Source: Thalia democratica (lineage: Eukaryota). From it: a stretch of DNA of 64,000 bases. The translations under genes were made by a program, and so were the position numbers. The stretch spans positions 1 through 64,000 of the forward strand of contig CBDBBG010000230.1 of NCBI GenBank assembly GCA_965202585.1, written 5' to 3'. Below are positions 1-26,858 of the stretch, in pieces (position 1 is the stretch's first letter; every line of letters begins with the position of its first letter). The notes under the pieces are model-generated. The model worked only from the letters and a program-made list of their open reading frames with translations. It was not told the DNA's origin and did no database searches.

Positions 1-24
1 AGCTTTAGTATTTCTAAGGTAAAA

Positions 25-3000
25 TAAATCATTGAGTAAAACATACTTTTCAATCCAAAAACCACTTTTAAACTGAGATTAATCAAAGTAGAATTAAATT
101 ATGAAATAATAAATTTAAAGTATAGTAACAAATCAGACTTATAGATAAACATTAGTATATCAATAATAATAATAACGACTACATATTATAAATTCATAAG
201 AAACCATACTAACATTTTTATACACAAACTTAATAACATTACATAAATAACGACTACAGTGAACAACTCAAATATTTTGTGGCTTAGACACTGGTTGCAA
301 AAAACTAGCAAAAACTATGAGTAGTACGGGCTTAATCTCTTTTATACAACGTTAGAGTGAAATTAGTCTGTCATATCTTATAACTCAACTTAGATCTTTA
401 ACTTAGCTGATTAAAATTTAAATATAAGTTCATTTTGTGCATGGTTATTGTAATAAATTAATATTGTAATGTATCATAAATGTTAGCACAACTATGTTTG
501 TGTGGTTCTATAGTAAGTGCAAGCTATACAACAAATTAGCTAGTACTTCAGTCGGAAAGCAAGTTTAATCTACTGACTTTATTGTAATACTTAAGTAAGT
601 ATTTTGACCAATAGGATGTAGCTAAAATTTAAGGCTTTTACCTACTTTAAACGGGTTATTAAAAAAATTAAACAAGAAAATTCATAAAATACTTTTAAAT
701 TCCACACTTGTGAAGAAATAAAAAGTTTGTAAAAGAATCGCCACGTAGCTTATTTAGAAAACAAAATTGAATGATCTAATGTTAAACTTAGCCAAAGAAT
801 TAAAAATGAAATGCATAAACATAAAATCCAAACTAAGAATTTAAAGTAATACTTCGCAAAGATAAATAACATAGAAGGCAACTACGACAGACTAAAAGAC
901 AAAAAAATTAAAGGATTAAATCTAGTTTTGAAACACGTTATGTGAAATCAATTGAAACAATGAAATCAACTGAAAAATACTGTTACATCTGTAATCATCT
1001 GGTTGAATAAAATTAAATATAAGCACAGATTAATAAATATATAACTTATGTTCTTGCATATTGTGTCAATTTGAAAAAATAAACTTGCTTAAAGTAGTCC
1101 AAACAATTAAGAAAAAGATTGAGTAATAGTTTTGAGAATAGATAAGTAGGCTGAACAGAGAAAAACATGAGTAATAGTTTTGACACATAGAATTTTTTGA
1201 GGTGTATTCGAATAGTTTAGGGTTGCTTACACTAAATGAAGCAAAAAATGACTGAGTTAGTTTCGTAAACCAGTGAAACAACAGTATTAAATAAAACGTA
1301 AAGTTAGAAGCCCATTAAAATTTGAATTGTTTTTACTTATTTTATAGCAGATTGAAAACTGAGAATACAATTACTCTAATGAAGCCAATTTTCAAGCCTT
1401 GTGGTCTGAAAAACTAGTAGAGAATATTCGATAATCTAAGACAAAAAAAGATATTTATGAAAATCTATTCAGCCTTTTCTTAATTTTGGGTTAGAAGATA
1501 ATTAAATACGAAACTACAAAATAGAAATGTAATAACGTTTTAGACTTATAAATAAATGCTTTAAAAGAGAAACCGTAGAAAATGTTATTTAAACTAACTT
1601 TTAATTGACTACTAACTTAAAAGACGAAGTTGGATCTAATCTTAATCTTGTTGAGAATAAGGTATGTTTAATCACGGATAAGACGTAGTTTACAAGAATA
1701 CCAGAAGTTTTGTTAAATTCTAAACAAATATATAATAACAGTATTAATTGAAATGAATGCTACAGCGTAAATAGTGACAAAGTTGGAGAAAATTTACGAA
1801 CCAGTGTTGCCATAACCGAATACTTTTTAAACGGTACAATAAAGGAATGTATAATTAGTTTTTATTTTTTACTTTTTAAACGTTTGTTTATTAAAAACTG
1901 AAATCTCATGTTCGTGCAATTAATTGGTAAATTAAGCATTTTGTTTAAACACGTATGTTGCAAGTGTATTTTCAAAATTCGAGAACCAATGAACGTTTGG
2001 CTAAATTAAATATTATACTGGTCACAAACAGAAAAAATACCAATAGTCGGAAAAGCAAAGAAAAATAACAGATAAATTTAGCTAACTTTCATAATTGTGA
2101 AGATAAATACAGAATTTATGAAATTCTTTAATTTAACAGTTTTGATTTCATATAACTCAAGTTTCAAAATCTCAAAGAACTTTATTTTCTTGTTATTGAA
2201 AAAATAGTTTATTTTGACTGTAAAAAATAATTTTATTGACCTGTAAACAAAATAAAAAAAACATAAGGCAGAACTACATGATGCCGCATTACAGTTTAGA
2301 GAAAACTGTTACTCTTCTTTTCTAAATAGACAAAATAATTTCATTTTTTAATAAACATAAACAGTGTTGCAGTTAAACAACAAGAACAAAGATTAAATAA
2401 TAAATACATACAAACAAAAGAATAATAATTAAAACAAACATACTAAGGACAAAGAGATTTATTTTCAAACTCATTGACAGCAAGTTTACGTTGTCAAATA
2501 AAAGTACCACTAAGATAATGTATGGTATACACAACCTTATATAGAAAAATAAGAACTTACGCTTAAATAACGAGATTTCTTTCTAGATAACTTTCTAAGA
2601 CATTAAAAATAGTTAGTTACTAAACTGGCATAACGGTAAAAAATTGAAAAACAAAAGTATAAAGCTGGTAATCGTTTGATCAATTTGCTACTATTTGGTT
2701 TACTTAACAATAAAAACGAACTCTGCGTAAAATTAATTGGATACAGACCGGGAAAACAGATTATAGAGGAAAGATAGTAGGGATGTATTACTGAAAAGAA
2801 ACAGCTTATCCGTTTAAGTTTAATAAACACAGTTTTTTTTTGGAAACTTTGAAAATAATCTAATAAACCACCGCAACAAGATGATAATCAATGATAAAAT
2901 ACTAATAGTTAGTCAGAAAAACAAAAAAAAGGTTCCCTAATTGATCACTAATAACGAATTAAGTGATAAACTTGGTAATTTAGACTAAACTGGTGATTCA

Positions 3001-6000
3001 TTTCAAGATCAAAAGTATTTAATCATAACTAAATAACAAAATTTAATGATTGTGAGTTCATTATTGTATATAGTATCTATCATGCACATATAATTAGTGT
3101 TAATAATGTCGTTACATGAGTTGCTCTACTTTGTCCATACAGTATAAGGAACTTTAAACTAAGATTAAATTTAAACAAAATACCATCTAAAGCTTGTCAT
3201 GAATCATGCATAGATAGTTAGTGATAGTACTGTCTGCATTAAACAAAATATAAGTTTTGTTTCTAATAAAGCACAACTATCTTATACTTGTAATGTACTT
3301 ATTACTATAGTTAAAAAAATAGTAAGATAACACTTTATGAGACTACTGAATTATGACGTAATAATCGGGAATATTTTTTTTTTTAATCTTAACAAATTGA
3401 CAAAATTATATGAAAAGATATGGACAAAAACAGTATTTTATTAGTGGTTAATTTAGAAGATGGCCAAACATTATTTATACAAATTAAGACGTAAATATTT
3501 ACTTATGTAAATGGAAAACTTTTGCTTAGTTTCTCTATAAGTGATATACATACAGTATTGTAAAGATACTACTTACAAAAGTGTATGGATTTGTACTGTT
3601 AAGAATGCGATGTATTATTAATAATAACATCATTTTCTTTCTCTTTTAAAACTAATGACGCTTAAAACTCAGTAAGTAATCTACTAACGCTCAGGAGTAA
3701 TTTGTACTGGCTTTACCTGTTACCTTAAATACAACGTGAGGGTGAAAGTAGCTATTATAATGAATAATTTAACTTTAAATTAAGTGAAAATAAAGTGTAG
3801 TTATGACTAAGGAGTACGAGCACATTTACTCGTACATCCAAGTCATAGTCTGTTATATTTTAACTTCCAGTGAAAATTAAGTTTAGTTGCACTAAGGAAG
3901 TTTGAGCACATTTACTCGTACTTCCAAGTCATAACTAATTTGGTTAATAGCAAACGAATAATAATAATTGACTAAAACACTTGATCGTTACTACAGTAAG
4001 TTTAAAAGCATCTCAAACTTAACATAATTATCAAATTACAGATTTTTTGCGTAGAGACATACTTGGTATTAAGCATCATACAAATAACGAAGCTCATAAC
4101 TAAAAGTAGTTGATGAGGAGTAATTTAGATTGTTATTAAAAATCGTAAATACTAAAAACGAGATAAAATCACTCACAATTACATTTACTACAAAGCATAA
4201 AACTTAAAACCTAAACTAAAAGATTATTAACAATATATCTATATAAGTTGGTTAAAAACCATAACAAAAACACACCTTAAACTTAGCATATAAACCAAAC
4301 AAATAAGAAGTAAAAGATTAAAACTTTAGGGGACATACATAAAGCCAATAGGCATACCTTACTTTAACAGTTTTTAGAAACTCTATAATTTCTACACAGA
4401 TAAAATGAATTGTCTTTAATTGTTTTAAAGTATGAAAATGCCAAACAAGCATACTTATAATTCATTTTCATAAATTTAGAATATTAAATCAAACAGACGC
4501 TCATTAAAAGCATTCAATACAAAGAAGACTTATTTGAACCGTGAAACTAGACTGAAAAACTGACAAAGCTTTAAATAAGTATTGTTTATGACATAAGGTT
4601 AAAAATTATAAATACCAGCACAACAATATGATAACTAATAATAAAACACTAATAACTGACTGTAGTTCGAAGATTATAAGTAGGGAATAAAAACAAACTT
4701 TACTAAATAAGAATACTTATTGATAATGATAATAATTAACAAAAAAAATTTTTAATCTTATGAAAAACAGTATATATTTTAAAGAGTGGCCAAACTTTAT
4801 GAGTACGAATAACTATGAAGAAGAATAATTTAACTATGTGGAAAATTTTAGCTCAGTTTCTATTTAAAGACAATTTAAATTTCAAACTATGTATTTAGTT
4901 TGATTTTAACTACAGCGGAAAAGTTTAGTATCTTGTGGCTTAAATACTACTTACTAAGAAAACATATTGAGTTGGTAAGAATGCGGTATATACTATTTAA
5001 GTTTTAAAACAATAGGAAGCTGGACCCTGTAACATAAAAATAAGTAGAGATAGTCAAAATTTAATTAACCAAGAAAGCTTTTAAATTGATTTGAAAATCC
5101 ACACGTGTGAAGAAAGAAAATTTTTGTAAAAACAACGTAAATAATCGCCACGGAGCTTGTTCAAAAAACTTAGTTGAGTAACATAAAAATCAAATGTTTA
5201 ATTCAGTTGAAAAAGTAAAAGCATAAATGTTATAAATATATATTAAAATGAGATTTTAAAGCAATTTGTTTTTATTTTAGTATTTTGCAGCATAAACAAC
5301 CTTTTAAACAAGGCAACTAAACAGATTAAAGCTGAAGAATAAAACAAAACCTTATAAATAAAAGCATTAAGCTTATCGTGTTAAAGGACGTATACTTTAG
5401 AAAGAAGAATAAACACAGATGCTGAAAATTCAAATACTTAATTACTGTACGATTAACAACAAGCTATAATGTTAAGTTTGAAAATAACAAAGTGCTAAAG
5501 CTTGGTACAATTGATCGTAATCAGCAATGAGCAGAATATTAAACAGTTAATTACATGAAAAAGTTAGTTTTACAATACATCTTACTTTGTTGTGTATATA
5601 AATATTATGCGTGGATATCTCTATCAGTCTTAGTATAATACTATTAATAAGTTTCAAGTACAATATAATTTTTTTAATTAAAACTGAATGAGAGCGCTAA
5701 AAACTGAGAATACAATCAATCAAAATCGTTATTTTAACTTTTAAAAATAGCTTTTAACATTAGAATATGATCAAACTTGACTAATTCAAGAGATACTATA
5801 CAAAAGGTTTTTTAAACAAACTGTTAAACATGTTAACCGTCTAAATAAAATAAATCTTAAATGAAGAAAACTGTGTGATATACAAACAAAATAGTAAAAA
5901 CACAATACTAGCCATAAAATATAAGACATATGCGATTTCACTTCAAGTTTAAACTTTATAAATCATGCTACCGGTCGATTGAAGGCTATAACATATTTTC

Positions 6001-7250
6001 AAAATTTACTTCATTTGAAAGAAAACTATATTTTTAAATAGATCAATTGTTTAAGAATAGATATGTTTTGATATTGAATGATGGTCAAAATTGACTGAAA
6101 TTACAGTACATGGGAGATAATTCTAGAGACTTTCATTAGTATGCTTAATTTAATAACAATGTAAGCTAATTTTTTTTTTACTTTAAGGACAAAACTTTTG
6201 GGTAATGTCCACTTCTAAACCAATACTTGTCTAATGAAAATGACTTTAAGTAAAACTTTACAAGCAAATAAAAAGAAATGTAGTTAAACTAGTAGTGAGT
6301 ATATTTTAAGCTTTACCTTTTACGCACTAATTTTAAATTTAGAATAGTCGTAGAATCGAGAATACCAGTCAAGTTTACTGTAAAATTTTAACTTAGCTGA
6401 TTATACTTTAAATATAAGTTCACTTTAGGCATGTTTACTGTAATAAATATTGTAATGTATCATAAATGTTAGCACAATAGCTCTAGAGTAAGATCAAGCT
6501 ATAAAACAAATTAGTTAGTACTTCAGTCAGAAAGCATGTTTAATCCTAAAACTAACTTTGGTTTAATTACTCTTCCATTATTAAAAATTGCTTTAAATAT
6601 AACTTGCATATATTAGCAAAAACCTAATAAATTCGTAAAAATGAAAATACCGGATTATGACGCAACAATATGGTAAATATAAAATATATAAAATTCAAGG
6701 ATTTAATGTGGAAAAAGGCAGATATATAATAGCTAGTGTAATTAAAGCAAATTATTAGTACTTTGGACAATTTAACTTTATGTGGAAAATTTAAGAAGAA
6801 AATGTTTATGTATAAGTAGCATAAATTAAAAACAAGTCGCTCATGGGCAGTTTATATCTGTTATCTTTCAAACAACGTTAGAGTGAAATTAGTCTTTTAT
6901 AACTTAACTTTGAGTTAATAAAAGAGTTAAGTTATGTCTTAGAAGTACTAGCACACTTAATAAATAAATTCCAATAAAGCACAATTATCTTATACTTTTA
7001 ATGTACTTATTACTATAGATTAAAGAAAAATGGTAAGATAACACTTTATGAGACTACTGGATTATGACGTAATAATAGGAAATAGAAAAATAATTAAAAA
7101 TCTTAACAAATTGACAAAATTAAATGAAAAGATATGGACAGAAACAGTATTTTGTTAGTGCTTAATTTAGAAGATGGCCAAACTTTATTTATACAAATTA
7201 AGACGTAAATATTTACTTATGTAAATGGAAAACTAAAAAATAAAGTTTAT
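25..7250 (+). mobile_element. Decayed virus-like or large DNA-element coding island (older, rearranged relative of 27.0-36.5 kb); family unassigned
   Basis: A-rich plus strand with long reading frames broken by stops and frameshifts. Blocks align by eye with the island at 27-36.5 kb (25-200 with ~32,750-32,900; 400-660 with ~35,800-36,035; 4,760-6,890 with ~34,150-36,450). No PolB, integrase, capsid or Rep/helicase motif was recognised. Confidence 0.45.
3800..3935 (+). repeat. Two tandem copies (period 86 nt) of a ~50-nt stem-loop; AATAAA precedes the first, a variant (AATTAA) the second
   Basis: 3800-3849 reads gttatgact-aagga-gtacgag-cacattta-ctcgtac-atcc-aagtcatag; 3886-3935 is a variant ending aagtcataac. 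The same motif recurs at 6931-6956 (partial), 7251-7299 and 36484-36532. Confidence 0.8.
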
Positions 7251-7299
7251 TTATGACTTAGAAGTACTAGCACATTTACTCGTACATCCAAGTCATAAC
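7251..7299 (+). repeat. AATAAA-preceded ~50-nt stem-loop motif
   Basis: aataaagtttat-ttatgactt-agaagtactagcacatttactcgtacatcc-aagtcataac; homologous to 3800-3849. Confidence 0.8.
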
Positions 7300-7337
7300 T
7301 AAAAAAGGTGCCGACCAGCAGAGTAACTGGGCCTAAA

Positions 7338-7441
7338 GGACAAGAATTAAAAAAAAACTAAGGGCAGGCCGGGAGATGACAGGTGCGAAGCACCGTGTCA
7401 TCGACCGGCCGTAGCCCTTTGTTTTTTTTTAATTCTTGTCC
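7338..7441. other. 104-nt hairpin: perfect 21-bp basal stem, GC-rich bulged upper stem, GCGAAGC apex
   Basis: ggacaagaattaaaaaaaaac (7338-7358) is the exact reverse complement of 7421-7441. Inner pairings are agggc/gccct, ggccg/cggcc, gatgaca/tgtcatc and ggtgc/gcacc around a GAA loop (7387-7389). Confidence 0.95.
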
Positions 7442-7711
7442 GCTACCTAAAACTTACTTTTCAAACTCATCAATGTAAAACCACTCAGTTATTAATTGAA
7501 AAACTAAAACTGATATTACCGTCAGGCCTTTAATGGTTTCACATCAATGAATTAGATCACATAAGCTCAAGGTTAGTAAAAGATAACAGATAAAGACCGT
7601 ACAAATATAACGCAAAAACGTATATTTGATTGGCAGTTACGCTACTCACGGTCCATTTGACAGAAAAAGGTGGCCTTCAAGAAAAAGAGAAAAGGAAAAA
7701 TGTAAAAAATT

Positions 7712-7964
7712 TTTCGCCGGCGGAGCCGGCGAAATGCCTTAAAAAAATTATTTTAAATTATCCTCTCCGAAAATTTCGCACTCATTTTCGGTTTTGGGGA
7801 TTCCCCATTTTTGAAAAAATGGGTGACGGGTCTCTTAAATTTAGTGCGTACCTTAAGCGGGTGCGTAGTCCTTAAAGAAAAATTTTAATTATGACAGAGA
7901 AAATGTTATTAAAAAACTAGTGCGTACCTTATGCGAGTGCGTAATTCTTAGAATGCGTACCTTA
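7712..7964. repeat. Cluster of short hairpins plus five TGCGTA-core direct repeats (subterminal or origin-like module)
   Basis: tttcgccggc-GGA-gccggcgaaa (7712-7734), ggggattcccc (7796-7806), cccatttttgaaaaaatggg (7804-7823); TGCGTA at 7845, 7862, 7921, 7938 and 7954, three of them as TGCGTACCTTA. Confidence 0.8.
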
Positions 7965-8099
7965 TAGATGCATTTATTTTGTGAAAATTAAATTTTTAAG
8001 TTAGGGTTAAAACCCAAAAATAGATTAATACAGTTTCAGATACTACATCATCCTGTTAATCACCTAATATTTTACATATACATGGAAAACAGTTCATCA

Positions 8100-10700
8100 A
8101 TCTCATAGATAGGTGTACTTTTTAATGACAGAAAATAAATCAAATATAAAAAGAAAGAAACTACAGATCTTTTAAATGTGTACATTGACAATCTATTTAT
8201 ATGATTGAACTGTATTCTATGTATATTATATTATTATTCTATGTATATTCAAACAATAGTCAGTTAACTTGCTTATGTAAATTGATTTTACTTAGATAAC
8301 CTTTTTAAAACAGTATAAAACTTAAATTAATCAAAAATAAAAAAACAGTTGAGATTCATCTAAACAGTTAAAATTACTTTGATTCAAGTAGTAACAATGT
8401 TTTTGTCAAATAAAACTTTAAAGTTGTAAAAAATTGTTTATATTTTTGTTTAACTTCAATTTTATACTGTTCTTACTACAGGATATCATTTTACTTGTCA
8501 TTTAAATTGCATAAGCTAAAGTTTATGCATGATAGTTTATTTGGTCTCATTGTAAAGTAATTATTTAGCAATCTAATAAATACAAGGGTTTCTCACGCAC
8601 TGTTACTACTACTTATTAACTACTTCATATATTCACTTATAGACTTAAACTCTGAATGCTTACTTAATTGCTCTGTTTAATCACTGATTTTAGACAACTT
8701 ATTGTGTGTTTCTTAAAGTGTGCATACAAATTAAAGGTGTTTGATGTTTTGAACTTGTCATTTCAATACATTTTTACAAACTAAAACAGTTAAACCATAC
8801 TACTTTGTGTCAATAACATATTTTTGGTAGTCATTTCAAAGTTTCTTAAATATTTGCATCTTAAACACTCTGCATTTAACATCATTGAAAGTTTTCATAA
8901 ACTAACTTTTATACTATTCCAAAAATTTAGTCTTTACTTTTGACATATACATAGAAAACAGTACAGCAAGTTGTTGATAAAAGCTTATTAGTGCATTCAT
9001 ATGAACAAAAGAAATTATAGATAGATAAAAGAAGAAAAAAAAGTTAGTAAAAGAAGAATATAAAAAATTAAACAAAGGTAAAAATAATACCACATATGCA
9101 CTAACAACCTTTAATTCTTGCTTGCTGTGAACTGCTTTGTAAATATATGAATGTAAACTTAAAATTTTGGAACATATTGTTTACTGGCAAACCTAATTCT
9201 GATATGGTTTAACTGTTTTCTTTTGTGAAAAAATTGATAAAACAGCTTACTTTTGAAACTAATAACAATTTCCGTTTATAATTACTCTTGCAACTTATCT
9301 TTAATGCACACTTTAAGAAGTACTTCTTATTACAAATCATTAATCTATCAATATATAAATTACATTAGCACTATAAAAATTAATCAATTTAAATTCTATG
9401 TTGTAAATAAACTTCTACAATTAGCTTGGGTTGCTGTCTCTTTGGGCTTCATTCATGAATACAATACTTCTTTATACAAGCTTATAAAATTTAACACAAA
9501 TGTTGCTACTTTTTAATTAAGTTTTCTTTTAAGGTAGCCTATTAATCTTAGGAGAATGAAGCCCAACAAGACAATTATATGTTTATGGTATAAATCCAGG
9601 TTACAACTCTATGAATAGAAAGTGCTAGTCTGAATTTGTGCAAAACTTAACTAGCATCTAAAGTTTAATCTTATTCAAGTATGAGCACTCAAAAAATTTA
9701 ATATTAGCAAAAGGACTCAACCATTAATAAGTAGAAAATGTAAAATTTGAGGACAAATTATAAAGATTTATTATAAATATCTAAAAATCTGAATATTTAT
9801 CTAACCTGACCGGTAACCCTGGCAAAAGTACCAAGTTTTGCACAAATTAAAACAATCCAATCAACTATTAAACAAACTAACCTCAACAGCTGCTGTAGTA
9901 GGTACTCATCATCCCAAAAAAAAGTAACTCATTGCCTGAAATCAACATATAAGAAAAAGACATAGTTACAACTACAAAGGCTTTGAAAAAACCTCAGAAG
10001 TTTTAAAATTTTACAGAGGATCAAAAAAAAAATTCAATAATATTCTTTAGAGCTTTTTTTTACTCAGTTCACCTTACAATTATGTTTCAAGCATTTCAAA
10101 GACTGAGATGCAAGTTTTTAAAGCCTCTTGACGGTTTTTTTCTAGCATCATGTAAGTGGATTCAAGCCTGTTGACCTTGTCTGAGCATTTTATGTTGAAC
10201 ATGCTTGTAAGTATAACAAGCTTGCAACAATTTTTGTGAGTAAAGATACATGCATTCTATGATGAATTAGAAGATAAAATAAAAGACATTTTCAAAGGTT
10301 TTGCATGAGAAAAGCAATATTAATTATCAACATAAACTTTCAAGACTGTTGATTTCCATACTGGATCAAATGTTTTCTTAAACCTACTCACATAATAAAA
10401 TGTTTTAGAAGATAAAATGATCAACATATATCAAGAACTAGTTTTATCTTCAACAATATTGACAATCAAATGGAGTTTGCTCAAGTATTTTACAGAGCTC
10501 ACATAAACAGTATAAAAAAGAAAAAAAAAATTTAGAGTTACTTTACACCTACAGCATCTAGAGCACTTACTACTACAAGTGCTTTTCTCATAAGAATTTT
10601 CATTGAAAAAAATTACTTTGCAAAATACTATTTCGTTGTGATGTCACAATAAAATGTAAGATTTTACAGAATTCATTAAAAACTACAAATGGAAACACTA
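8100..10700 (-). pseudogene. Decayed intron-containing gene or transposon gene, product unknown
   Basis: A minus-strand AG..GT-bounded exon at 9882-9935 reads Q*VTFFWDDEYLLQQLL here and QWITFFWDAEYLLQQLL in the second copy. Other fragments are GYLKRKLN*KVATFVLNFISL (~9,538 downward) and RFKKTFDPVWKSTVLK (~10,390 downward). Boundaries are approximate. Confidence 0.4.
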
Positions 10701-11574
10701 TGTTAGCATAGCAGGGTGGTTTTTAGCTTTTCGAACATAAAATACTTTTTACTTTACATATTGTTAAAGCTCAAACAGTTTTTTCGTACAAACTTTATTG
10801 TTTAAATCTTATTTTCTTTTCTTTTTTTTTCTTTTTAAATAAGAATTGAAATTATTCTTCTTAATTTCTATCTTTTTTATTCCATAAGTGATAACTGGTT
10901 GAACATATTGTTTAATATTTAAGCTACAGTAATTCATTACGCTCCTAGAAATTACATTGACACCTTTATAAAAGTATATAGTTTAAGTATTTAACTCTCA
11001 ACTTTGCGAAATTGTATTTTATTTGTTTTAAAGATGTTTTTTACTTAATAATTTCTATAAGATTAACTATATATAGCTTAAAGCCTATATTTTCATCAGA
11101 TAATAGCATACATTTAATGTTTGTAAACTCATTTTACTTACTACTTAGTTTTTATCGTTTTACCATATTTGCCAAAACTACAAAGTTCTTCTTAGTCATT
11201 GATGTAACAACTTTTTGAAGCAGGTAGAAAAGAAAAAGCCATATTGTGCATAGTGAGCGAAAGATAAACAAAGACACCATAATAACAACTTTTATGAATG
11301 AGTCTAACAAATAAAGATTATTCAAAAAATTTTGAAAATTCAAAAAATTCAAAAAAAAAAACCTCAAATTTTGAATAAAATTCACTAAGAAACCCGGAAA
11401 TATAAAATATTTTTACATGTTAAAGTAATTAAATTTTATTAGATAAAAAAATCTATCATTTAGATATAACGTTTTTTGTCATTTTCAAAATTTTTTTTAA
11501 TAAAAAACCCATCTAAAGTAGTGATTTTACAGTATGGTTTCAATGACTTTATAATATTTTACACATTTTTTAAC

Positions 11575-11664: not shown

Positions 11665-14600
11665 ATGGCTCCTAAAATAACATTTGAATTGAATAATGGA
11701 CAAACGATGTTTTATGCCGGTTCAGTTGTTGCTGGATTTGTCACAATCGAATTGTTTGAAGACTTGTCTAATGTCTTAGGTTACTTTTAAAGTAAAAGTT
11801 TTATTGAAACGTTTTTAAGTACAAATTTAAATACAGTTAAATTATTTTTTTATTTTTATATTTTCTTATTATTGCAAGTAACTACTACAACTAGTAATTA
11901 TCATGCTGTAGTTTTAAATCAATAAAAGTTATCACTTCCTAAAAATATTATAAAATTAAAATTGATTTATTGCTAACTCTATTAGATATGTATTAAAGCT
12001 TCTCTAACCACATGTTAATTTTTGAATACAATTGTATGTGTACTTTACTGAAAGCTTTATATCAATGTTATTCATTTCCAGTATTGCTCTAAAAGTTGTA
12101 AAACATTTTGAACTGCTAAAATTTAACGTAAACCTTATATTTATTGTTTAAAACTGAGTTGTGTTCAACAGAAGTGATTGTTCAAATGTCTGGAAAAGCT
12201 TTTGTGCACTGGTCAAGGGGAGGAGGTGATAGTCGTTCCAATTATTTTAACGAAGAGGATTACTTCAAATTACCCAATACTCTGCTACAAAGTACTTTTG
12301 GCATTTCTAATAGTTTATGGTTTTTGTGATTAAATTATAACGACTTACAGATTTGCAAGATGACAAGTTGAGAAGGGGCGAACACAAATTTCCGTTTTCT
12401 TTTAAGATACCCCACAACGTACCAGCTTCTTTTAATTGTCAGTTTGTTTTTAAAAATTACTTTCAATTGCTAATGATGCTTTAAAAGTGTTTTTATTTTA
12501 AACCATTAAATCACACTGAACAACTAAGTTAAAATAGTTTTTAAGTATTGTGTAGTTTTACATTGTGGTTAGTTCTTTCTGTTTTCATTAGTGATCAATA
12601 GTTTAGTATAGTCAATATTATCATTTAACTACTTAATTTTAGTAACTTTTCCTAATGACATTATAAATTTTAGATACTAAACGTTAAACTATTTACTAAT
12701 CTTGTGATTTCTAAGTACTTGCCTTGTTTTTGTTTAGTATTCAAAAGTAAAACTCTAAAAAAGTATTTATTTAAAACCCTTGAAAGTTCAAAAAAAAAAT
12801 TCAAAGGCTTTTGGGTTGCTCCTAATTTAAAGTACATAACTTTTCTATAGTTAATTATCTTATAAGTATTACACTAACACATGTTCCTGTGTGTTAACCG
12901 ATTAACACACTTCAACGGAGCTATGATAATGAAGGTAATGTACTACCTTCATTTGTAATCTTAATGTAGTGTATGTAATCTTCATCGAAAATAAAAGGCA
13001 TACAAAGTAATCTTATTAGTTTTTCTTCTTATATTAAGTTATTTAAAAGTTTTTGAAAATGTTAAACTTTAATAAAACAATTTATTTTATTAAAATAAAT
13101 TTTATCGAAAAATACAATGTAAATGAGCTAATCTAAAGTTTTCTGTTTGAAATATCGTGAACTTGACATGAAATTAAAGTTAATATTTTCATAAACTTTA
13201 CATGTTCAAAAATTTAATGGATTAGAACTAATGAGTAAAGTTATTGATTTTAACTTAACGGATAACGTATGAAAATTTGAAAATTAAAAGTTTTTAAATT
13301 TTTGAAACCGGATTAATTCGGTTTGGAATTGACTCTTGTGGGAATTGATTGGTGGGAGTTTATATAATTGGTTTTCTTCGGAATTGATTCGGTTGAAAAT
13401 TAGTTTGTATGGGATTTTATTTCTTTAGAATTGATTCGAGTGGGAATTAGTTTGTATGGGAATTGATTCGGTTGGGAAATGTGCTCAGTTTGAAACTGAG
13501 CGGTTCCCGAATTGTCATACATCGCTGAAATGAATTTTTGTTTTCTTAATACTTGACAACTATGACATCCTTTAAAAATAAATAAATAGCATAATTTGGA
13601 TTTTTTACCAATTAAGCAAAACTTTTTAATTTTTTAGTTATAGTTAAATTAATAATTTAAAACTTATTGTATACAACACATTATATAATTAAATATTTAA
13701 TTTAAATATAAATAATATAAATGTAATAAATTTTCTATATAAATTTTTCTTAATTTTCTCATTATAACTAACTACATTACTTTAAAACTTTTATACTTTT
13801 GGTTAAACTTTATTTAGTTTTTCGAGATATCTAGTTATTTTCAAATTTTACTTATAAATTTTAGGGAGCATAGTGAGTTTTCATGTCTCATGCACAAAAA
13901 AGAGAAACACATATTTATTTTACCGTAATTTACTAATTACAGTTTATTTATTCAAAAGGAGCATATGGTGGTAGTTGCTTAACATTTTTTGAATTTTTAA
14001 GCTTCATTTAAAATAAAGCTACCTTAATGGTTGCAGTGTTAAAAAAACAATTAACTTAATGAATACCGTTTTCAACACCTAATGTCTATTTATAAACAAT
14101 TGTAGAATCTAAAAATTACTGAAATTACCATAAATTTTTTCTTCTTCAGTACTAAACTATTAAGAACTAAGAAAACTTTTAATTCATAGAAATTTAAAAA
14201 AAATCTTTCTACAGTTTCATGGGGTTCTACAATTGCATACGTGTACTATGGTTTAAAGTTGAAGATAATACGTCATGGTATGCATTTCAATGTGGAGAAA
14301 AAACACCAGATTACTGTTATCGGTAACACACTCATGTACGAATGTCCTGTGAATCCTATGGTTGGTTTATTTGTATTCTTTTTATTTAAGTTTAATGGTT
14401 TATGTTGTTGTTTTTATTGAAGGTTACAGTAAACTCCGAAAATGTATTTTTTTTACAATTTTGTTACAAAAAATTACAGTTTATAAAAATACAGTCTTTG
14501 ATAAAAAATTGGAACATTTTAATTGATAAGTTATTTATTTTTGTTCAATAAATCTTAAAATAAATTAACATGCATTCAAAGTACAGCACAAAACAGGTAA

Positions 14601-17600
14601 CGTTTGGCTTGAGAGTTAGATCTCTTCTACCAACAAAAATTTCTGGCTAGCAAAATTTTCTTTAGATTATAGTTAACGTGTAAAAAACAAATAAAATCAG
14701 GCTTGTTGATATTTTTTAATGCAAAGTAATGTTTATAAAACTATTATTTTCCATAAAGGTTTGCCTCTTACCTTTTTCAAATTTTTATATATTAAAATTA
14801 CACAGCCCACTAAGACTTTTTTAAACAAGTCTGGCCCGCAACGGACTATTACTTTTGTTGAAAATTGCCCGCAGAGTAAACTAGTTTCTCATCCCTAGTA
14901 TAAATGAATCCCTTTGATACCAAAAAAAGATTTGAAAACACAAAGTATATCATAGCTGTTGATTTTTACGACGAGAAATAAATTAATAACATAAAAAGCA
15001 TCATGTTTGAAAATTAGAAACTGTATCGGGAAGTATAAAGCTTCTTGTATACTACACAACTTATATGCGAAATAATGTTTTAACTTTATAAGTAAATTTT
15101 TAAGAAGTTGCAAGAGTGCTTTAGGCAAACAGATTTATTTCTGTTATATTTTTTACATTCCAAAAATGTTTTTTGTATTATAAAGGTGATATATTCTTTA
15201 TATTTAGTTTAATTTACATAGCGCTGCATTGAATGCAGCTCTAAAAATAAGCTTTTCAACAACTTTTTGTATAGGAAATTTGTATATGTTTAAAATGCAG
15301 CTGACACAGTTTTAGCTTGCAGCGCCAGCCATTTAACGAATATTTGAAAATTGAATGTAAGATTTGAAAAACTAACAAGTTTATCTATAAGTTCAAAGAA
15401 AAAAAAAAACAGAAAAACTGAAATAAAGGGAAATTTTCTTTTTTATTCTTTTTTTTTTGAATAGGTGGGACTACAGCTCCAGTGTGCCACCCCACGCGAC
15501 GCCCCTGGTTTAAGATACTTCTTGTTACTTGTGTTCAATTGTAGTTTTAGTAAGTGTGTCGTGTGATTATTTTACTTTTGTAAATAAACTTTTGTTGACT
15601 TTTAAATATCTTAGATGTATCTATCTTATTTAACCATATCTATCCCATTAAATTACCCCTAGCAATTTAGATTGGTTACATTAGACACCACGTCGGCATC
15701 TCTTATCGAGACATCACAAGTCATTTATGACACAATTAAATAAAAATGCAATAACATCTAAATGGAGACTGAAAACCATATTAACCAAACAAAAGATACT
15801 TTAAATAATTACATGGTTTTTGTAAACTAGACCTTTCTTCTAAAAACTCCATAAATTTATTCATAAAACATATTTCATAAATTTTCAAGATAAACTTAGT
15901 AGAGGTGTTTAGAAAAAATCCTGGTTAGGCCTGAGCTATGCAGATAAGATTTCACTGAACTGAGGTGACCTGAGGAAAACCTTACTAAAATGAAATGAAT
16001 AAATTACCTACATGCATATTTATTTTTTATATTCTCGTAAGATAAAAGCCAAAATTTTATTTGAACCGAATTAGGTTCACGAGCATACATAAAGAACTAA
16101 ACATATAATGAATAAGTAAAAGAGCGGTTATCCAAAATGCTGAGATTAAAAGCCTTAATTATGTACTTAATTAATTTAAGAGTCTAACAAAAATGATTTA
16201 TCATAGTTTTATACTGCGTGTAAAACTCTAGATCAAAGTTTAGAAGTTTTTTATAAGTTTGAAAAAGCACTGTTTTATTCACTCAAGCGTGAAGCCATTA
16301 ATTAGTTTTACATTTCATTTAACCTTTGACAAACAATAAAGTACAATTCAAAAAATTTAAAAAGTATATAAATTTCGAGTTCGAATCTTGGATTCGGTAG
16401 ATCAATACTTTTGTCTCCCTTTTATTTTTGACTAATTAAATTTTAACTTTTGGTTTATTTAAATATCTTAAACTAAAACAAATTCTATTTGAAATCATTT
16501 TATGGCAAAAAAAAGCTAGTAACACACACTATAACAACTCCATTTGAAATATATGTACCTTAAATCAGCCTAATAAACGTAGGAACCAGTAGTTGCCAGG
16601 GCAACGAAGTCCATATGTTGTTGGTGCTGCAAAACTGGACCAATCACCGCTGAGATACAACTCAATAAAACTGGATTCGTTCCCGGTGAAACGGTGTACT
16701 GCAATATCAACATCGAAAATTTGAGGTTTTTAATTTTTTTAATATTTTCGAAAATTAATCCAACATGAGTAAATAGCCATTGAATTAATTTCACTTTACA
16801 AGCCACAGATATTCAGGACACCAAAAACAAATGTATTTAACTTGTATTGACGCTTATTAACAAAAAAATATTCTATAGAAATGTTTCGCTCATCGAGGTG
16901 ATCTGTATAAATCAAAAGATCTTATAATATTGAATAAATTAATTTCTTAATTCGTTTGATTTACAACTAGAAGCATTACTAAGTTTATATGTGAAAATTT
17001 TAAACGTTTTTAACCCAATATTTTTATTTCTTTATTTAAGCATTAAGTAGAATTCAAACTGTTTATTTAACTTTTACAAAACTTATCATAGAACTTGAAA
17101 GATTTTAACAGTTTTTCAAAGTTTATATAATTATTCTCTTTAAGCTAAAATGTTAAATTTAAATATTCATCAAGTTTGTTTTTGCTTTTTAGTGTTTTCG
17201 CTATTCTATTTCACAATTAGTTTTTAGAACTTTAATGTTTTAAACAAAGGATAAATGTATGTTTTTTGTGTACTGTATTTTTTACACAAAATTTATTTAT
17301 TCTTTCATTGTTATAAAGTTAAATTTATTGTGTTAAATTATGATGCGAGGGTTTTGTTACCAACAAACTATTTTTGCTTTTTACTCAATCTTACAAACAC
17401 AAAATTACTGTTTCAAATTTCAGCGCAACAAAACTAGTGGTTGCCAGATTGAATTTGAAGAGAAGTGTGTTTTTGAAGTGTGGAGCGGCAGGCGAGAATT
17501 TTAGTGATCGCCTAATTAAACTGGACTTGTACGGATGCAAAAGCAGAAAGGTTCTTGTTCTCAACAATGTTCCTTTTCAGGTTTGTCAATTGTTTTCTAA

Positions 17601-20578
17601 TGCTTTATCATTGTATTTATTTAATTCAATCGTTTTAGGTATTTGCATGCTTTTAAAATCTAAGTTTTTAATTTGTTGTTTATTTTTATACTTTAGAATG
17701 TAAATTTTAGATTAAGAATTAACTTCAAAATACATTAATTTTATACCTTGTTTAAATAATATTTTTTGCAACAAAAAACATTTATTAAAAAATATTAATA
17801 AAATTTCTTTAGTTTAAAATTTATTTTAGCCATATCTCTAAAAATGTTTACAAAACTTTAAAAGATAAAAATCTTTTGTAGGATTTTATTAGACCTACAC
17901 ACGCAACTTTTCTTTTTTTAAAATATGCTGTTTTTTGAGTTGTGGCGCTTTAAAAATAATCTAATGATTGGTTTGTCCGAATTTTTAATGTCCTGTACCA
18001 AGCTTTTTTATGTTGTAACTTACAATTTGAATATAAAATCAAAAAGTTGAATTGCTACTTAAGAATAGGTGTTTATACAAATATTTTAACAAAAATAATG
18101 AAAAACATTTTAAGTTTAAACTTAATACCAAAGGATTACCCTGTTTTTGTGCAGATTATTACTAATAGTGTTTTTTATTTTGTATAAAAATTATGAAATA
18201 TTTATAAATACCTGCATTAACTTTTTTTTAATAAATTATAACTGTGTTTTATAAAACATAGTCCATCCGAATAACAAAAAAATTTGTTTGTTTTAGTTAT
18301 AAAATACCGTTTTTATGATCATATGTATTTATAACACAGCTTTTTGTTTATTTGACTTTTTCTATAAAGTGTTAAAAAAGCATTATAAAATTCAATAAAT
18401 AATTGCAGTTACCAGTAGACCTTGCACCTTCAATGCTACCGTTCTGTTATATAATAAAACCGAACTATTTCCTTGAGGTTAGATTGAAGTATATTATATT
18501 TTTTATGACTTATATGCTATGCTATTTCAAGCGCTTTCAATGAATATCATTTTTGGAAATAAAAAATGGAAAAAATATTTTTTCGGCTGTAATGTGGTTT
18601 AAGTAAGAAAATATCTTTAGAAAATTAGTAAAATGAATCCATTTTTTTGTATATTTTAAGGTATGAGAATTTAATTAAAAAAATTTAATTTTGAAAAGCA
18701 TTATAGTTTTGATATAGTATGTTTTAGTGATATTTATAGTTCTTCGTATACCATATATATACGACAAAAAATAGTAAGTAAAATTTTAACAACTCACAGA
18801 ATTAGTATTTTTTTTGTTTCAAACGTATATTCTAAGGTTAGGCTTCATAATAGATTTGAGTATATAAATTCAAAATATTCTAATCAGTATTACTGTACTT
18901 TTCTAATATAAGACTGTCAAAATACTTTACTGCTAATTGAACATACTCTTCCCAATAGCCACACATAAACAAAGCATCTTATTGAATAAAGCTATTATCT
19001 CAAAATAAGTTTACACTCATATAAGTTTATATCAAAATTAGTTTAAATCTAAATAAGTTCATTAAAATATAATTTATTGATATTAAACAGCATTTATAAC
19101 TTGTTACTACCAAGGTATAAATAATTTTTTACCATGAAAACTTTTTTTAAATACTTACATGAATGCTAAAACAAATTATGTAAAAAAAGCTTTATTTCAA
19201 CAGTTTACAATCTTTTTTTTTTGCTTTTGTACAATATCAAAACACTGATAAGTTATTTGCATTAAAAAAAAAGTTAAATATTTAGTGCTCAAAACTACAG
19301 GTTTTTAGCATCTTTTTTCGCAATTAACAAATTGAATTAGCTAATATACTCAGTTTTGTTTTCCATTTATTGGTAGTATTATATTTTTTTCTTAAAAAAA
19401 TGGTAATATCTGTTTTTATTTTATACTTTGATACTTTTGGTTTCATTTATAACTTAATATTAATTTTTTTTCTTTATTTTTCACCTTTGTACTTTAGTGA
19501 GCATAGAAATTGATTCATTGTTCACAAAAATTTCTTATTTAACCTGTCAGTGGTTGTTAGTTTAGAGAACTGTAGTTTAAAGAAAAATATACAAATAATC
19601 AGTTGGCAAATGATTCTTGTCACGGTTGCCAAAAAACTTGGTGTCCTGGAATTTGATAATTTAGACAAAAAAAAACTGAAAGACCTGGAATTTTAGAAAT
19701 ATTGAAAAAAAAACATTGAATTTTTAACAAAAATCATTTAGAAATCTGAATTTTTAGTTATGTTTACTTTTAAAATATATATTTTTTTTTGTTTTACATA
19801 AGAAAAATTTATCATTTTTTTTTATTTAAACTGGTAATGGAGGTAAACATGTGAGTTTAAAAAAAAAGTGCAAGTAAAAGCAATGAATGTTACATTTTTC
19901 TGAAATTATCTTCATTAATTTAAGCTTGAAAAAATTCTGTTAATACTCATTCTATTAAGTTTCGTGTTTTGTCAAGTCTAGATTTTACTTAAAGCTAGTT
20001 GAATTAAAACTCCTTGTGTTTAAAATTTATTATCAATAAAATCTGAAACGACAACAAGCATAAGTACAAACAAACGTTCCTAATACAAACTTTTATAATA
20101 ATAAAATGAGCTCGAGTTCAGTTATTCTGCACTAGTACGTTTTTAAAGCTCGGAGGCTGCTGCCAAAAAACGTCATATAAACAATTTAGTACTGTGTTTA
20201 AAAATCAGTGAGTACTTATTGCAAATGCTTTTTACACTTAATTTGTCAAATTAAATTTTGTAACAAATATCTACATGTGTGCATCCCAGCTTGAAGGAGT
20301 ATTAGGCAATTGTCGCAACAACCTGAGGGCTTCGTGTCAACTGTACGTTGCTGGTGTCACTGGGCGTTAGTTGATTTGTATGAACTATCTGAGTTAAATA
20401 AAAAAAAACTATTTTTTTATTTTACTTAACAACCGTTACAACTAGTGATTAAAAAACCATTTGTTTCACAGCTGGTTACGCGCAACCATTAGCAAGCGAC
20501 CAGCCACCAAGTAACCAACCATCATTAGCTGAACCATCTGTACCACCTCCAGCATACCAACCACTTAATAATGCCTAG
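11665..20578 (+). CDS. ARRDC: Alpha-arrestin (arrestin domain-containing protein), 9 coding exons, 339 aa, copy 1
   Basis: Exons 11665-11779, 12172-12291, 12351-12437, 14215-14360, 16583-16725, 17424-17580, 18409-18477, 20290-20365, 20472-20578. All introns are GT-AG, phases are compatible and the total is 1,020 nt. Translation includes MAPKITFELNNGQTMFYAGSVVAGFVTIEL, SGKAFVHW, GEHKFPFSFKIPHNVPASF, ICCWCCKTGPITAEIQLNKTGFVPGETV and a C-terminal VPPPAYQPLNNA*. These are arrestin N/C-domain motifs plus the PPxY motif typical of alpha-arrestins. The symbol is family-level only. Confidence 0.93.
13305..13523. mobile_element. Minisatellite-bearing non-autonomous element in arrestin intron 3
   Basis: Degenerate GGGAATTGATTCGGTT-like repeats flanked by a 5' palindrome (aaaccg..cggttt, 13305-13324) and a 3' hairpin gggaa..gctcagttt-g-aaactgagc..ttccc (13474-13508). 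Confidence 0.55.
14832..14897. mobile_element. hAT-like MITE right-end fragment in intron 4
   Basis: Two gcccgca subterminal motifs followed by gtttctcatcccta, resembling ...GGCCCGC...CATCCCTA/G MITE ends. The other end was not found. Confidence 0.35.
15220..15507. mobile_element. MITE fragment with a CAGGGGCGTCGC-type terminus in intron 4
   Basis: GC-rich end gccaccccacgcgacgcccctg at 15486-15507. The left boundary is uncertain. Confidence 0.35.
19621..19835. mobile_element. hAT-like MITE fragment in intron 7
   Basis: Begins cacggttgcca (CAGGGTTGCCA-like) with two cctggaattt subterminal repeats. The right end is degenerate. Confidence 0.35.
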
Positions 20579-21579
20579 CTAAAAAGTTATTTTAGAATTT
20601 TTGAGAATCTAATTGAACTTGTTAATGCGACTTTTTTTGTTTGTAAAATGCTCACTGTAAAAAATAGAGTTAGTTACATCTGTTTGAATACTACTTAGTC
20701 ATCATTAGGATAATAATAATTGCACTTTTTATACTGCTCTATGAAGTGTTTGCGTCTTTAAAATAGTTATATTATAGCAACTTTCGAAAAAAAATTTAAG
20801 GCTTTAATTTTAATGGTTTTTAAAACTAACTACTTATTTACTTTCAATTAAGTTTTTCACTTTTTTTTAAACTTAACTACTTAATTTGTTAAAACTTAGT
20901 TTGTGATATTGGATTTTTATTTATTGGAAATACATTTATTAATTATTTCGTAATATACTTTTTAGGAACTTAATTTTTATAATTCTTACAAAAAATAAAT
21001 TTAAGATTGCCATAAACCGTAAGGTGTAGTTTTTTTGTATTAATTGATTATAAATAAAAGAAAAAGGTGTTTTGGTTTAAATAGGTAGATTTTTAAACGT
21101 TAGTTTATTCAAGCACTTTACTTTTAGAAAGTATAACATATAGTTTACCAGCCGTACCACATATAAGCAACGTAAACCTTTATAAGTTTAAACTTTAAAA
21201 CGATAACCCATAATTTATTTACAATTTCTTTAAACGTAAAGTACATTTATATGACCCTAATAATTGTTACTAACAATCATAATATTTTTGTAGATATAAA
21301 ATGTTTTTTAATTTATTACGTGTGCAGACGGGAAAGGGTTCTACAACAAGATCCACAAAATAAGGATCCGGATATAAGTGGAAAAAGGCCGTATCTCGCT
21401 TTTAAATAAGTAAATTAAAATTAACTTTAAGTATTAAATAAATGATTATGATTAAGTTATTTTAAACTAGCAGTTCAATGAGTTAGATAGTGTCGTCTAT
21501 TGTGTTTTGTAAAGTTATCTATTTTAAACATTACCTAATGCTCGAAACAGAGTATGTTCCAACAAACTTTAAGTGTAAA

Positions 21580-21920
21580 ACTGAATTTAACAAATAATTG
21601 AGCTACTTTTGTAAGCCAGTGCAACAATATTACTAGATGAAATGAAGTGTTCGAGGTCTATTAAAAGTTGAATTGTATTTAGTTATTTAATACAGATGAA
21701 AAACTGAGAATGTAATTACTCCAATGAAGACAAGTGTAGTCAAACTTAGAGCTTTTTATAAGGAAAACTAGTGAAAGATATTGGATAAACTGACAAAAAA
21801 AAAAAAGTTGTGTGAAATTCTATTTAGTCTTTACTTCACTAAGTTTAAATTAAGCAACTTGTTTGAACAAGTATGTTGCAGACATTTAATAATCAAGAAC
21901 TGAAGAACATTTGCCTAAAC
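21580..21920 (+). repeat. Detached fragment of the decayed coding-island family, downstream of the arrestin gene
   Basis: Aligns by eye with 1,230-1,500 (gaaaactgagaatacaattactctaatgaag vs gaaaaactgagaatgtaattactccaatgaag) and with ~1,930-2,010. Confidence 0.6.
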
Positions 21921-23451
21921 TAAAAATTTTCAGTCTTTGGCAGCGATTCTTAACCTGGAGTAAATTTACCCCTTGTTTACCAGATCTATTGACAATCTTT
22001 ACTTTAAATATGTAAATTAAAGTTTATAAATATTGTTTTTAGTTAATATATTAGTGTTTTTTGGTCTTTTTAAAAGCTAAACAAACTCATAAAAAATTAC
22101 GGTTTTTTATATTTAATAAACATGAATTTCAAAAAAAAGTTTACTTTAGAGTTACTTAAATCTAGTTTACAAAGCTTATTGATTTGTGTAGTACTTAAAC
22201 AATAGTATATAAGAGAACCCTTAGCTGCAATAAACATAAAAATAAATGTTTATACGGACACCAAGGTTTAGCTTAACTTTACAAACTATATTAACACGTA
22301 CGAAAGTACTTATGAAACTGTCAAAGTAAGTAATGTTTAATTAACTGTTAAAGAACTAATTAAATTAATATACTTTATAAAAAAGAAGTCTTTTTCTAAA
22401 GACCAAAAAAACTGTAGTCTCTAAAATTTATGCAAAAAATTGAATGATAATGAACAAGTAAAATTTTTTTTTGATTTTTTGTCCTTTTCTTTTTAAACTT
22501 GCTAATACTTAAAAATAAACATTTTCATCGTTTCTGGTGGAAAATTTCATGCTAAAAAACACCAAAAAAATTATCAAAACGATCAAAAATAAGGTTTTTA
22601 TCAAATTTTACAATCACGCTACTTTCTTATGGCAAATTTAAGCAGGAAAATTAATTTTAACACGTGGTTTCTCTTCTCTCGCTTTGAAATTTTTAAGCCA
22701 ATTATAAAATTTTAGCTATAACTATTTTAAACCTTTTAATTTTCAATAAAAAAGTTTTACTATCGTTTTCAGCCCAAAATTCTGCTTTAAAAAACACCAA
22801 ACACTTTTTAAAAAGGATGAAAAATAAGCTTTAAAACTTCAAATCTTTGAATTTGAACTATTTGGTTTTTCGAATACCTTTCAAACTTGTATGTGTTTGC
22901 ATTATATGAGTTAGAAGTTAAAAACTATAAGTTCGCATTTTTTTGATCCCATACATTTTGCATTGTGCGGGTAATTAGAAAATCAGTTTGAGGTAAGGTG
23001 AAAGTTTTTTTAAATCATCTAAAATTATGCAAAGGGTGTTTTTATGATACTTTCGAAACTTTAAATTTTTTCCAAAATCAAAAGTACCTGTAAAAATAAG
23101 CACCTTAGTAACCAGATAAAAACTTGGTCAGCACAGAAGAATTTTCACCAAGGCATAACTTTTCTAACAATGTTTCTAACCATATTTCAGTTCTTTGTGT
23201 TTGTTTTTAATGACATAAGAACTATTTTATTCATTGTATTCTTTGAAGTAAGTTTATTCTATTCGTTGATATTTATAAAAACATTCTGTTACGGAAGTAC
23301 AATTGTAAGAACAGAATTTTTAAAATTAAACCATTTATAGTTTATACATAGCTGTTGTACAAGCTACTTTTGTACATAAAAAAATTAAAGAATAATCTAA
23401 GATACTGACCAATTAAACCTAAAACAATTTGATAACACTTTATCATCAAAA

Positions 23452-23620
23452 TGTGCCGACAGCAGGACTCGATCTCACTACCTCCGGTTTTCGATTCCGA
23501 CTGACATTCACTGAACTACACAACCACTTGTATATGGTCTTCAATGTTGGTATATAAAGTTAACAAAATACTACATACTTTGATTTTCACAAAACAAATA
23601 AAAAGATCTCAATTACTAGA
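23452..23620 (-). repeat. tRNA-derived repeat or tRNA pseudogene with conserved upstream flank (a)
   Basis: Minus strand gtggttgtgtagttcagtg..(A-box-like)..ccggaggtagtgagatcgagtcc (B-box-like). The acceptor and anticodon stems do not pair properly. Confidence 0.6.
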
Positions 23621-24560: not shown

Positions 24561-24563
24561 ATT

Positions 24564-26826: not shown

Positions 26827-26858
26827 TTTCATATCTATTAAATTTCAAAATTATTCAT

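Follow-up and report, generated by a model that had tools for sequence, protein, structure and literature searches.

A 104-nt hairpin at positions 7338-7441 of a 64,000-nucleotide stretch of the Thalia democratica genome (contig CBDBBG010000230.1, positions 1 to 64,000, forward strand; hereafter the window) is the conserved internal core of a non-coding element of 10-18 kb, and not the end of an element. The element consists of left arm, core and right arm. Its core carries one of two unrelated stems set in one sequence frame, shows structure-specific constraint and has a fixed orientation. Elements (E) lie next to duplicated blocks of host DNA (X) in an X-E-X or X(EX)n layout, host genes lie inside X, and sequence is frequently exchanged among cores. 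It is apparently a large, structurally constrained and undescribed element, associated with kilobase duplications and with host-gene amplification. We put at roughly one half the probability that the hairpin core acts as a single-stranded DNA signal of an element that drives these duplications. Somewhat more tentatively, it may represent a new class of animal mobile DNA without ends or genes, whose internal GNA-capped single-stranded DNA hairpin would serve as origin or nick site, and which would insert by duplicating kilobases of target, seeding tandem amplification of local host genes. This novelty is provisional, as it is based on failed membership tests and a negative literature search and not on a demonstrated mechanism.

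The hairpin folds into a perfect 21-bp basal stem, a T.T mismatch and four more helices (6, 6, 7 and 5 bp in the fold with RNA parameters) capped by GC-GAA-GC. Its minimum free energy is -45.4 kcal/mol with DNA parameters (z -14.3; none of 200 shuffles was equally stable) and -72.1 with RNA parameters (z -14.0). The stable stacked hairpin with a GCGAAGC cap that a preliminary description had read from the letters of the window therefore holds, with z about -14 under both parameter sets. The second window copy, at 36,571-36,675, differs as described by one base, a G added to the purine internal loop. Shortly past the window end there is a third copy, at C239:65376, and the window forms part of a head-to-tail array that repeats every 28.8 kb. 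The preliminary description allowed that the conservation might owe something to the younger age of this block. The young duplication (8511-35195 against 37330-64000, 99.7% identical) begins right of the core, and in the 840-bp block with the hairpin the two window copies show only 93.8% identity, so that youth does not explain the near-identical hairpins. The fold is not unique in strength: five control windows (300 kb) contain four loci below -25 kcal/mol per 120 nt. A strong hairpin is thus by itself no rarity here, and the case stands on context and conservation.

Copies were sought in the 802-Mb assembly (1833 contigs). The apex 20-mer of the window hairpin, here called type A, occurs 127 times. 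A pattern taken from hairpin-flanking sequence only gave 473 matches against 0 for the reversed control, and many of these frames enclose a different hairpin, type B. There are at least 184 copies of type A by its flank marker and at least 297 of type B by its stem pattern, counts that take in unplaced contigs, which may repeat haplotypes. The cores total ~480, mostly in head-to-tail arrays with periods of 4-34 kb; what had been named as the best candidate for an undescribed mobile system belongs to a repeated and apparently undescribed element. Both types share the frame GGTGCCGACCAGCA...GGCCTAAA-GGAC[stem]GTCC-GCTACC. The type B stem is unrelated in sequence to that of type A but similar in length, has purine-rich internal loops and carries its single mismatch, A.A, after 23 bp, where type A has T.T after 21 bp. 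The two types also have TAGTGCGTACC repeats in common, as well as a second, small hairpin. Of 90 distinct contexts, 59 have this small hairpin with a GGA loop, 5 have it inverted and 8 in altered form, and 18 lack it. In public sequencing runs, contig depth over this small hairpin (7717-7743) is very high, ~5x that of the large one; it may occur in other repeats.

Loops of the form C-GNA-G or C-GNNA-G cap the hairpin in both types, and do so on the same strand. Type B loops are GAA, GGA or GATA, closed by C-G, and the common type A variant changes the middle base only (GGA in 17 of 54 cores). According to a review of such loops, GNA loops are the only ones among GCNNNGC oligonucleotides to form the stable DNA mini-hairpin, with melting temperatures of 76 °C (GAA) and 73 °C (GGA), and the RNA tested as counterpart, r(GCGAAAGC), is far weaker and melts at 39 °C; GNA mini-hairpins occur at the phage G4 origin, ssiA and N4 promoters (PMC13037366). 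Fixed G.T pairs in the stems number 0 in type A and 1 in type B, among about 87 pairs. The loop chemistry of the core hairpins points to single-stranded DNA. Inversion of the hairpin within its frame is seen in four type A copies, all in one array and representing one event, and in no type B copy. With orientation almost fixed, flip/flop of the adeno-associated virus (AAV) type is unsupported, and a likeness to the terminal hairpins of parvoviruses, named in the preliminary description, is not borne out. The suggestion made there of a signal for replication, priming or resolution is supported in part: the structure is constrained and the loops point to single-stranded DNA, but the hairpin does not behave as a parvovirus-type terminal one.

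Constraint on the core follows its structure. Among 54 distinct intact type A cores, a set that leaves out 4 broken or inverted ones, 11 of 90 paired and 6 of 14 unpaired positions are variable, compared with 200 of 342 in the flank. In 19 cores chosen by flank marker only, the figures are 6 of 90 paired positions and 179 of 320 flank positions. Paired positions are ~5 times less variable than the flanks, and stem-breaking mutations, for which a neutral rate had been named as the alternative, fall far below the flank rate. Across 14 loci, selected through a 20-mer within the hairpin, pairwise identity is 98.0% in the hairpin, 88-93% in the adjacent core and 72-79% in the right arm. Contigs from four public runs, each of a separate study, show 91 substitutions, and the 40 of them that were listed all lie outside the hairpin. 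In one run, contig depth is higher over the core than over the arms; this is not a copy number and was not used. Three runs of unspecified kind gave no coverage of the core, which speaks neither for nor against its expression.

Collecting the copies, as the preliminary description advised, yielded ~480 cores in which two-sided stem changes and mismatch-perfecting events recur. The covariation is ambiguous, because arm-to-arm copying is recurrent in the hairpin and can yield two-sided changes; these are therefore no proof of selection, yet most copies retain the mismatch and the loops. Within the hairpin, about ten lesions of independent origin (deletions, truncations or inversions) were found. 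Four gametes are present in 421 of 613 same-side core site pairs 30-100 bp apart. A recombination hotspot at the hairpin itself was considered and rejected, as linkage across the hairpin is no lower than beside it.

The internal position of the hairpin is seen at all loci viewed at length. All 10 loci viewed over 20 kb have left arm, core and about 4 kb of right arm, and in six solo copies viewed over 60 kb or more the hairpin is interior, with homology reaching ~4 kb to its right and 6-12 kb to its left. The hairpin is thus not at the 3' end of a ~10 kb element, where it had been placed, nor is it the palindromic centre of a short foldback miniature inverted-repeat transposable element (MITE), as both arms are present at 10/10 loci. 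A left-arm marker lies upstream of a listed core in 97 of the 100 matches listed (of 428), judged by eye, and the other 3 have damaged cores. A right-arm marker lies downstream of a core in 46/46 matches on large scaffolds (of 65 in all; 10 of the 19 on small contigs were checked). Among the matches checked, no arm marker without a core was seen.

The left arm is built of modules of ~200 bp that are shuffled, strand-locked and partly common to type B, and its A skew, steady and one-sided, is +0.1 to +0.3. A 157-bp satellite, entered at differing phases, stands at or near the left end of many type A and type B elements; it is not present in the window copies. Right ends are ragged. Three other readings of this anatomy were rejected. 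The left arm does not resemble a decayed gene, as it lacks codon periodicity and its indels are not enriched for multiples of three; the core is not the joined ends of a circle, since solo copies carry both arms and arrays start with whole elements; and a retroelement with the satellite as its 3' tail disagrees with the finding that core-less left arms were not seen. At type B left ends the satellite also occurs in inverted arrays, in which runs on opposite strands adjoin (C1:13.130-13.134 Mb, C4:3.66 Mb). One solo copy, at C9:45.73-45.75 Mb, has its right arm interrupted by a 397-bp tandem array that is likewise arranged in inverted fashion.

Elements are bordered by duplicated host DNA. All six solo copies are flanked by host direct repeats, of 13.5, 9.0, 8.6, 3.9, 2.8 and 0.8 kb. 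At C7 and C6:22.2, the second repeat copy stops exactly where the first meets the satellite, that is, at the left end of the element. At C6:78.0 the repeat stops ~260 bp short of the satellite, and short templated inserts of nearby host DNA are found at both junctions. The flanks of the C7, C6:60.7 and C6:78.0 solo copies have no match in other arrays. Viewed from the flanks, as the preliminary description advised, the elements show kilobase host direct repeats, ragged right ends and, at the junctions examined, no common terminal sequence at either end. In arrays C5:69.7, C4:96.7 (type B) and C8:6.0-6.4, the host block is present on both outer flanks, giving X(EX)n. The presence of the whole block on both sides is not what simple tandem duplication of a region with a resident element would give. 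Arrays often pair a run on one strand with an adjoining run on the opposite strand (C2:85.7-86.1, C4:11.5-12.0, 25.1-25.4, 26.4-26.7, 81.8-81.9 and C6:70.8 Mb), which suggests inverted amplification.

The DNA between array elements is mostly array-specific and contains host genes. In the units seen, these are arrestin-domain, BACK-Kelch, calpain, PARP, RING, kinase and DnaJ genes, and the cargo domains found in the 20 of 34 long frames scanned are BACK-Kelch, calpain, kinase, PARP, RING, DnaJ and RRM. Long single-frame genes with BACK-Kelch, calpain and PARP domains are amplified as array cargo (L052:3434-4864, L061:208-1662, L056:8472-9779 and L074:3260-3970). One exon of the cargo gene of the window, out of 6 scanned, matched Arrestin_C with a score that falls slightly short of the Pfam cut-off (E 1.6e-5).

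We propose that the hairpin folds on one DNA strand, as single-stranded DNA, and that a putative nuclease or replication initiator recognises its bulged stem and the frame. Copying into a new site could then proceed by strand invasion, DNA synthesis and template switching, such that new element copies would land between two copies of local host DNA (X-E-X). The left end would join the end of X, and the ragged right end might rejoin upstream with small templated inserts. Subsequently, unequal crossing-over between the X copies may build arrays with one core per unit. HUH proteins read single-stranded DNA structure together with adjacent sequence (PMC10288648), and the hairpin with its retained mismatches and invariant frame looks like the site of a protein of this kind.

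Several observations weigh against this mechanism. Solo copies retain the hairpin, with 1 private change where 11.7 would be expected from X-X' divergence and with 3 hairpin differences, counted by eye, where 9.5 would be expected (P=0.015), a test in which the insertion is taken to be as old as the X-X' divergence. Decay would be expected of a purely selfish copy, and the solo hairpins did not decay, so that gene conversion or host selection is also needed. Core variants are freely shuffled among loci, and their linkage decays within about 100 bp, which leans towards a host locus. Ectopic conversion together with selection on spreading copies, or else host selection, could explain both the kept hairpins and the shuffled variants. 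Damaged hairpins are still tandemly amplified, among them the 4 inverted copies, whose stem is broken, and a unit of 925 bp that is cut within the hairpin 3' arm; an intact stem is therefore unnecessary for local array growth. At C8:6.375-6.382 Mb, at least 7 identical 925-bp units stand in tandem, with the T-run of the hairpin 3' arm as breakpoint. In addition, the + strand also folds well as RNA, and stem transitions of G.T type outnumber those of A.C type only 7 to 4 by eye, which decides nothing. Among five control windows, one has a centre-spanning duplication (older, 86-91%). For blocks >2.5 kb, 5/6 solo copies against 1/5 controls gives only P=0.067; with all six solo copies counted, 6/6 against 1/5 gives P=0.015. 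The C6:22.2 solo copy is a weak case, as it has cargo in common with the C6:77.1 array and probably moved within a larger duplication.

No mobilising enzyme was found in the searches made, which likewise weighs against this mechanism. The arms (12 sets) have no frame >129 codons, except for cargo in one short unit. A genome search with PF05970, made exon by exon and therefore a lower bound, gave PIF1-family matches to the host helicase only (3 candidates scored), and a search with the Helitron Rep profile (PF14214) gave no match, but its control was blank too. The 20 long frames scanned at the fetched loci encode host-type domains or none, plus one reverse transcriptase; no histone H3 tail was present at these loci. 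The reverse transcriptase is a 506-codon frame (L077:4633-6150:-) inside a short 8.8-kb type B unit, beside a RING gene. An open frame of at least 536 codons with no Pfam match lies 2.4 kb downstream of a type B core (L087:8393-10000:+). The host PIF1 helicase (L175:808-2664:-) is a single uninterrupted frame whose best named relatives are from Ciona and Phallusia (46% identity). This one gene points to a tunicate, probably a pelagic one, and DNA of this genome is also present in marine metagenomes.

The main rival explanation is a host-selected multicopy locus, which we consider unlikely, though less so than the other alternatives. The core would be a promoter plus a structured RNA or a chromosome-function signal, the A-rich left arm a long non-coding transcript (for example a small-RNA precursor), and the copies would arise by ordinary segmental duplication and be homogenised by gene conversion. 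Such a locus agrees with the intact hairpins of old solo copies, the decay of linkage within about 100 bp, the one-sided A skew of the left arm and the stable RNA fold, the + strand folding better than the - strand in most alleles. It fits poorly with stems that have 0 (type A) and 1 (type B) fixed G.T pairs and with loops that obey the DNA GNA rule. The Rfam search that the preliminary description had called for returned nothing in the window at gathering score, no ribozyme either, and for type B loci only weak, chance-level matches far under the cut-off. The hairpin 3' arm also contains a T9 run, and such a run would stop RNA polymerase III. Finally, a host locus leaves unexplained why duplicated host blocks stop at the left boundary of the element. 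A passive fragile site is improbable. Here an old repeat would contain a palindrome that breaks often, and repair would give duplications and conversion with no selection and no dedicated enzyme. The ~10 independent lesions in the hairpin, the large tandem duplication without the element in 1/5 controls and the capacity of arm-to-arm copying to maintain paired stems without selection are all in line with it. However, arm-to-arm copying erases mismatches, yet the T.T and A.A mismatches and purine loops persist in most copies of both types; neither the one frame and one loop rule around two unrelated stems nor the almost fixed orientation is expected of such a site.

Similarly improbable is a degenerate non-autonomous Helitron or Helentron (HLE1/HLE2) with obscured termini, which would form tandem arrays by rolling-circle insertion and acquire cargo by end bypass. 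Like HLE1, HLE2, HINE and DINE-1, the present element is non-coding, has GNA-looped hairpins, an internal satellite and tandem copies, and is linked to host gene duplication. GAA-looped terminal hairpins are described in Fusarium HLE2 elements (PMC5148889), and HINE/DINE-1 elements, with tandem repeats at their centre, have been connected with gene duplications (PMC4067079). In the present element, the 157-bp satellite, at least one exon-like fragment and two type B arrays that end in a hairpin cut in its 3' arm would suit this origin. However, HLE1 and HLE2 are defined by terminal motifs and by the absence of target duplication (PMC11417382; PMC4067079; PMC5148889), whereas 5/6 solo copies have flanking direct repeats of 2.8-13.5 kb (control 1/5). 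Unlike HLE1, the element has no 5' TC or 3' CTRR end: the hairpin is followed by GCTACC and a 4 kb conserved arm. HLE2 elements are marked by 12-15 bp subterminal inverted repeats, a short 3' palindrome close to the end and insertion in TT; here no subterminal inverted repeats were found, and the junctions examined have no common terminal sequence at either end. The hairpin is internal and about 100 nt long, left ends begin at differing satellite phases, right ends are ragged, and the outer ends of the three fetched arrays are whole elements and not half cores. No RepHel helicase was present among the PIF1-family matches, and no RepHel partner was found in the exon-by-exon search.

Other known systems resemble the element in part. 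The cores of primate duplicons are segments of expressed protein-coding genes and number a few dozen copies, unlike the present core, which has no coding frame, exists in ~480 copies and has a constrained hairpin of 100 nt at its centre. The terminal hairpins of parvoviruses, AAV and poxviruses are imperfect DNA hairpins of about 100 nt with retained mismatches, and the core is like them in these respects. Unlike them, it shows no flip/flop mixture, lies internally and has asymmetric flanks; no NS1/Rep or capsid gene was found among the long frames scanned, the 12 arm sets having no long frames. A foldback MITE, a short element with terminal inverted repeats and a short target duplication that is dispersed by itself, would not have both arms at 10/10 loci over 20 kb and the same stem-adjoining sequence in all copies. 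A non-LTR (long terminal repeat) or Penelope-like retroelement, of which many copies would be truncated at one end and lack the interior, is disfavoured by the finding that core-less arms were not seen among the matches checked and that no ribozyme reached the Rfam gathering score.

With primate core duplicons such as GOLGA8, in which palindromes are implicated, the element does share a common core central to many segmental duplications with differing flanks (PMC12058530). Reversed-ends transposition of Ac/Ds and hybrid element insertion of P elements also give tandem direct duplications with an element at the junction. These events require sharp ends, give 8-bp target duplications and are an occasional outcome (PMC3744419), whereas here X-E-X is the usual state and ends are ragged. 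Replitrons, HUH elements that move by copy-and-paste, also have right ends that are fuzzy, target duplications that vary and a putative hairpin. They measure 0.9-3.6 kb and have short terminal direct repeats and a short near-end hairpin (PMC10288648), none of which is seen here; at the junctions examined, no short direct terminal repeats of the Replitron type are present. The phage G4 origin, RSF1010 ssiA and the phage N4 promoter likewise have C-GNA-G capped hairpins, which act in single-stranded DNA (PMC13037366). These signals are bacterial or phage with short stems, and a matching enzyme is not known in this genome. The core 20-mer has 0 matches in viral contigs, where 9 matches to a loose frame pattern were discarded as GC-rich chance matches without a hairpin, and the core has 0 matches in two scans of metagenome contigs. 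The full texts in our literature search contain no description of such an element, although repeat libraries in supplements could contain a matching unnamed family; the main text of the salp genome paper, as excerpted, does not mention hairpins, inverted repeats or tandem arrays (PMC10686999).

It is an open question how a common core can drive the duplication of segments and the growth of gene families. In this genome the candidate cause comes down to a structure of 100 nt, and its natural variants allow a direct test: there are two unrelated stems, loop alleles, an inversion and about ten alleles in which the hairpin is broken. A mobile element would be one with termini of no class tested and with flanking duplications that greatly exceed target-site duplications of the ordinary kind. 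A host locus would instead represent an unannotated ~480-copy family under strong structural constraint. By an arithmetic estimate, the elements alone, at 10-18 kb each, would make up ~0.6-1% of the 802-Mb assembly.

Table 1. Positions, in window coordinates, of the parts of the element and of the host DNA it carries.
Feature	Position	Strand	Remarks
Left arm, copy 1	1..7250	+	contig begins inside arm; A-rich on +; no reading frame signal
Imperfect inverted repeat of ~50 nt, upstream of type A frame	7251..7298	.	left-arm copies at 3787-3847 and 3873-3938
5' frame motif GGTGCCGACCAGCA, common to types A and B	7307..7320	+	second copy 36540-36553
Type A core hairpin, copy 1	7338..7441	+	45 bp, T.T mismatch, purine-rich internal loops, GC-GAA-GC cap
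Stem base and 3' frame motif GTCC-GCTACC, common to types A and B	7438..7447	+	
Small hairpin TTTCGCCGGC-GGA-GCCGGCGAAA, common to types A and B	7712..7734	+	second copy 36954-36976
GGGGATTCCCC palindrome and variable-number TAGTGCGTACC repeats	7796..7965	+	close the GC-richer core
Right arm, copy 1	7966..11300	.	non-coding, 72-79% identical across 14 loci, ragged distal end
Host DNA in 28.8-kb unit	11665..25950	+	repeated at about 40470-54760
Multi-exon arrestin-domain-like gene	11665 to about 20590	+	within host cargo
Left arm, copy 2	28100..36480	+	left boundary may reach ~25950; without 157-bp satellite
Type A core hairpin, copy 2	36571..36675	+	one extra G in purine internal loop compared with copy 1
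Right arm, copy 2	37200..40110	.	
Left arm, copy 3	56900..64000	+	duplicate of copy 2 left arm

The host DNA of the window has minor features of its own. Directly past the right arm, at positions 11550-11650, there is a high-copy repeat, over which the contig depth of public runs is very high. The cargo also contains a family of dispersed repeats, 200-450 bp long, at 23411-23621, 24246-24701 and 26511-27026; it has a motif that presumably resembles the box of a tRNA-derived short interspersed nuclear element. Two exon-like stretches, at 25608-25742 and 25942-26085, gave no Pfam match and are taken by us to resemble a C-type lectin domain. Part of these stretches is also found at C5:69.7 and C6:13.45.
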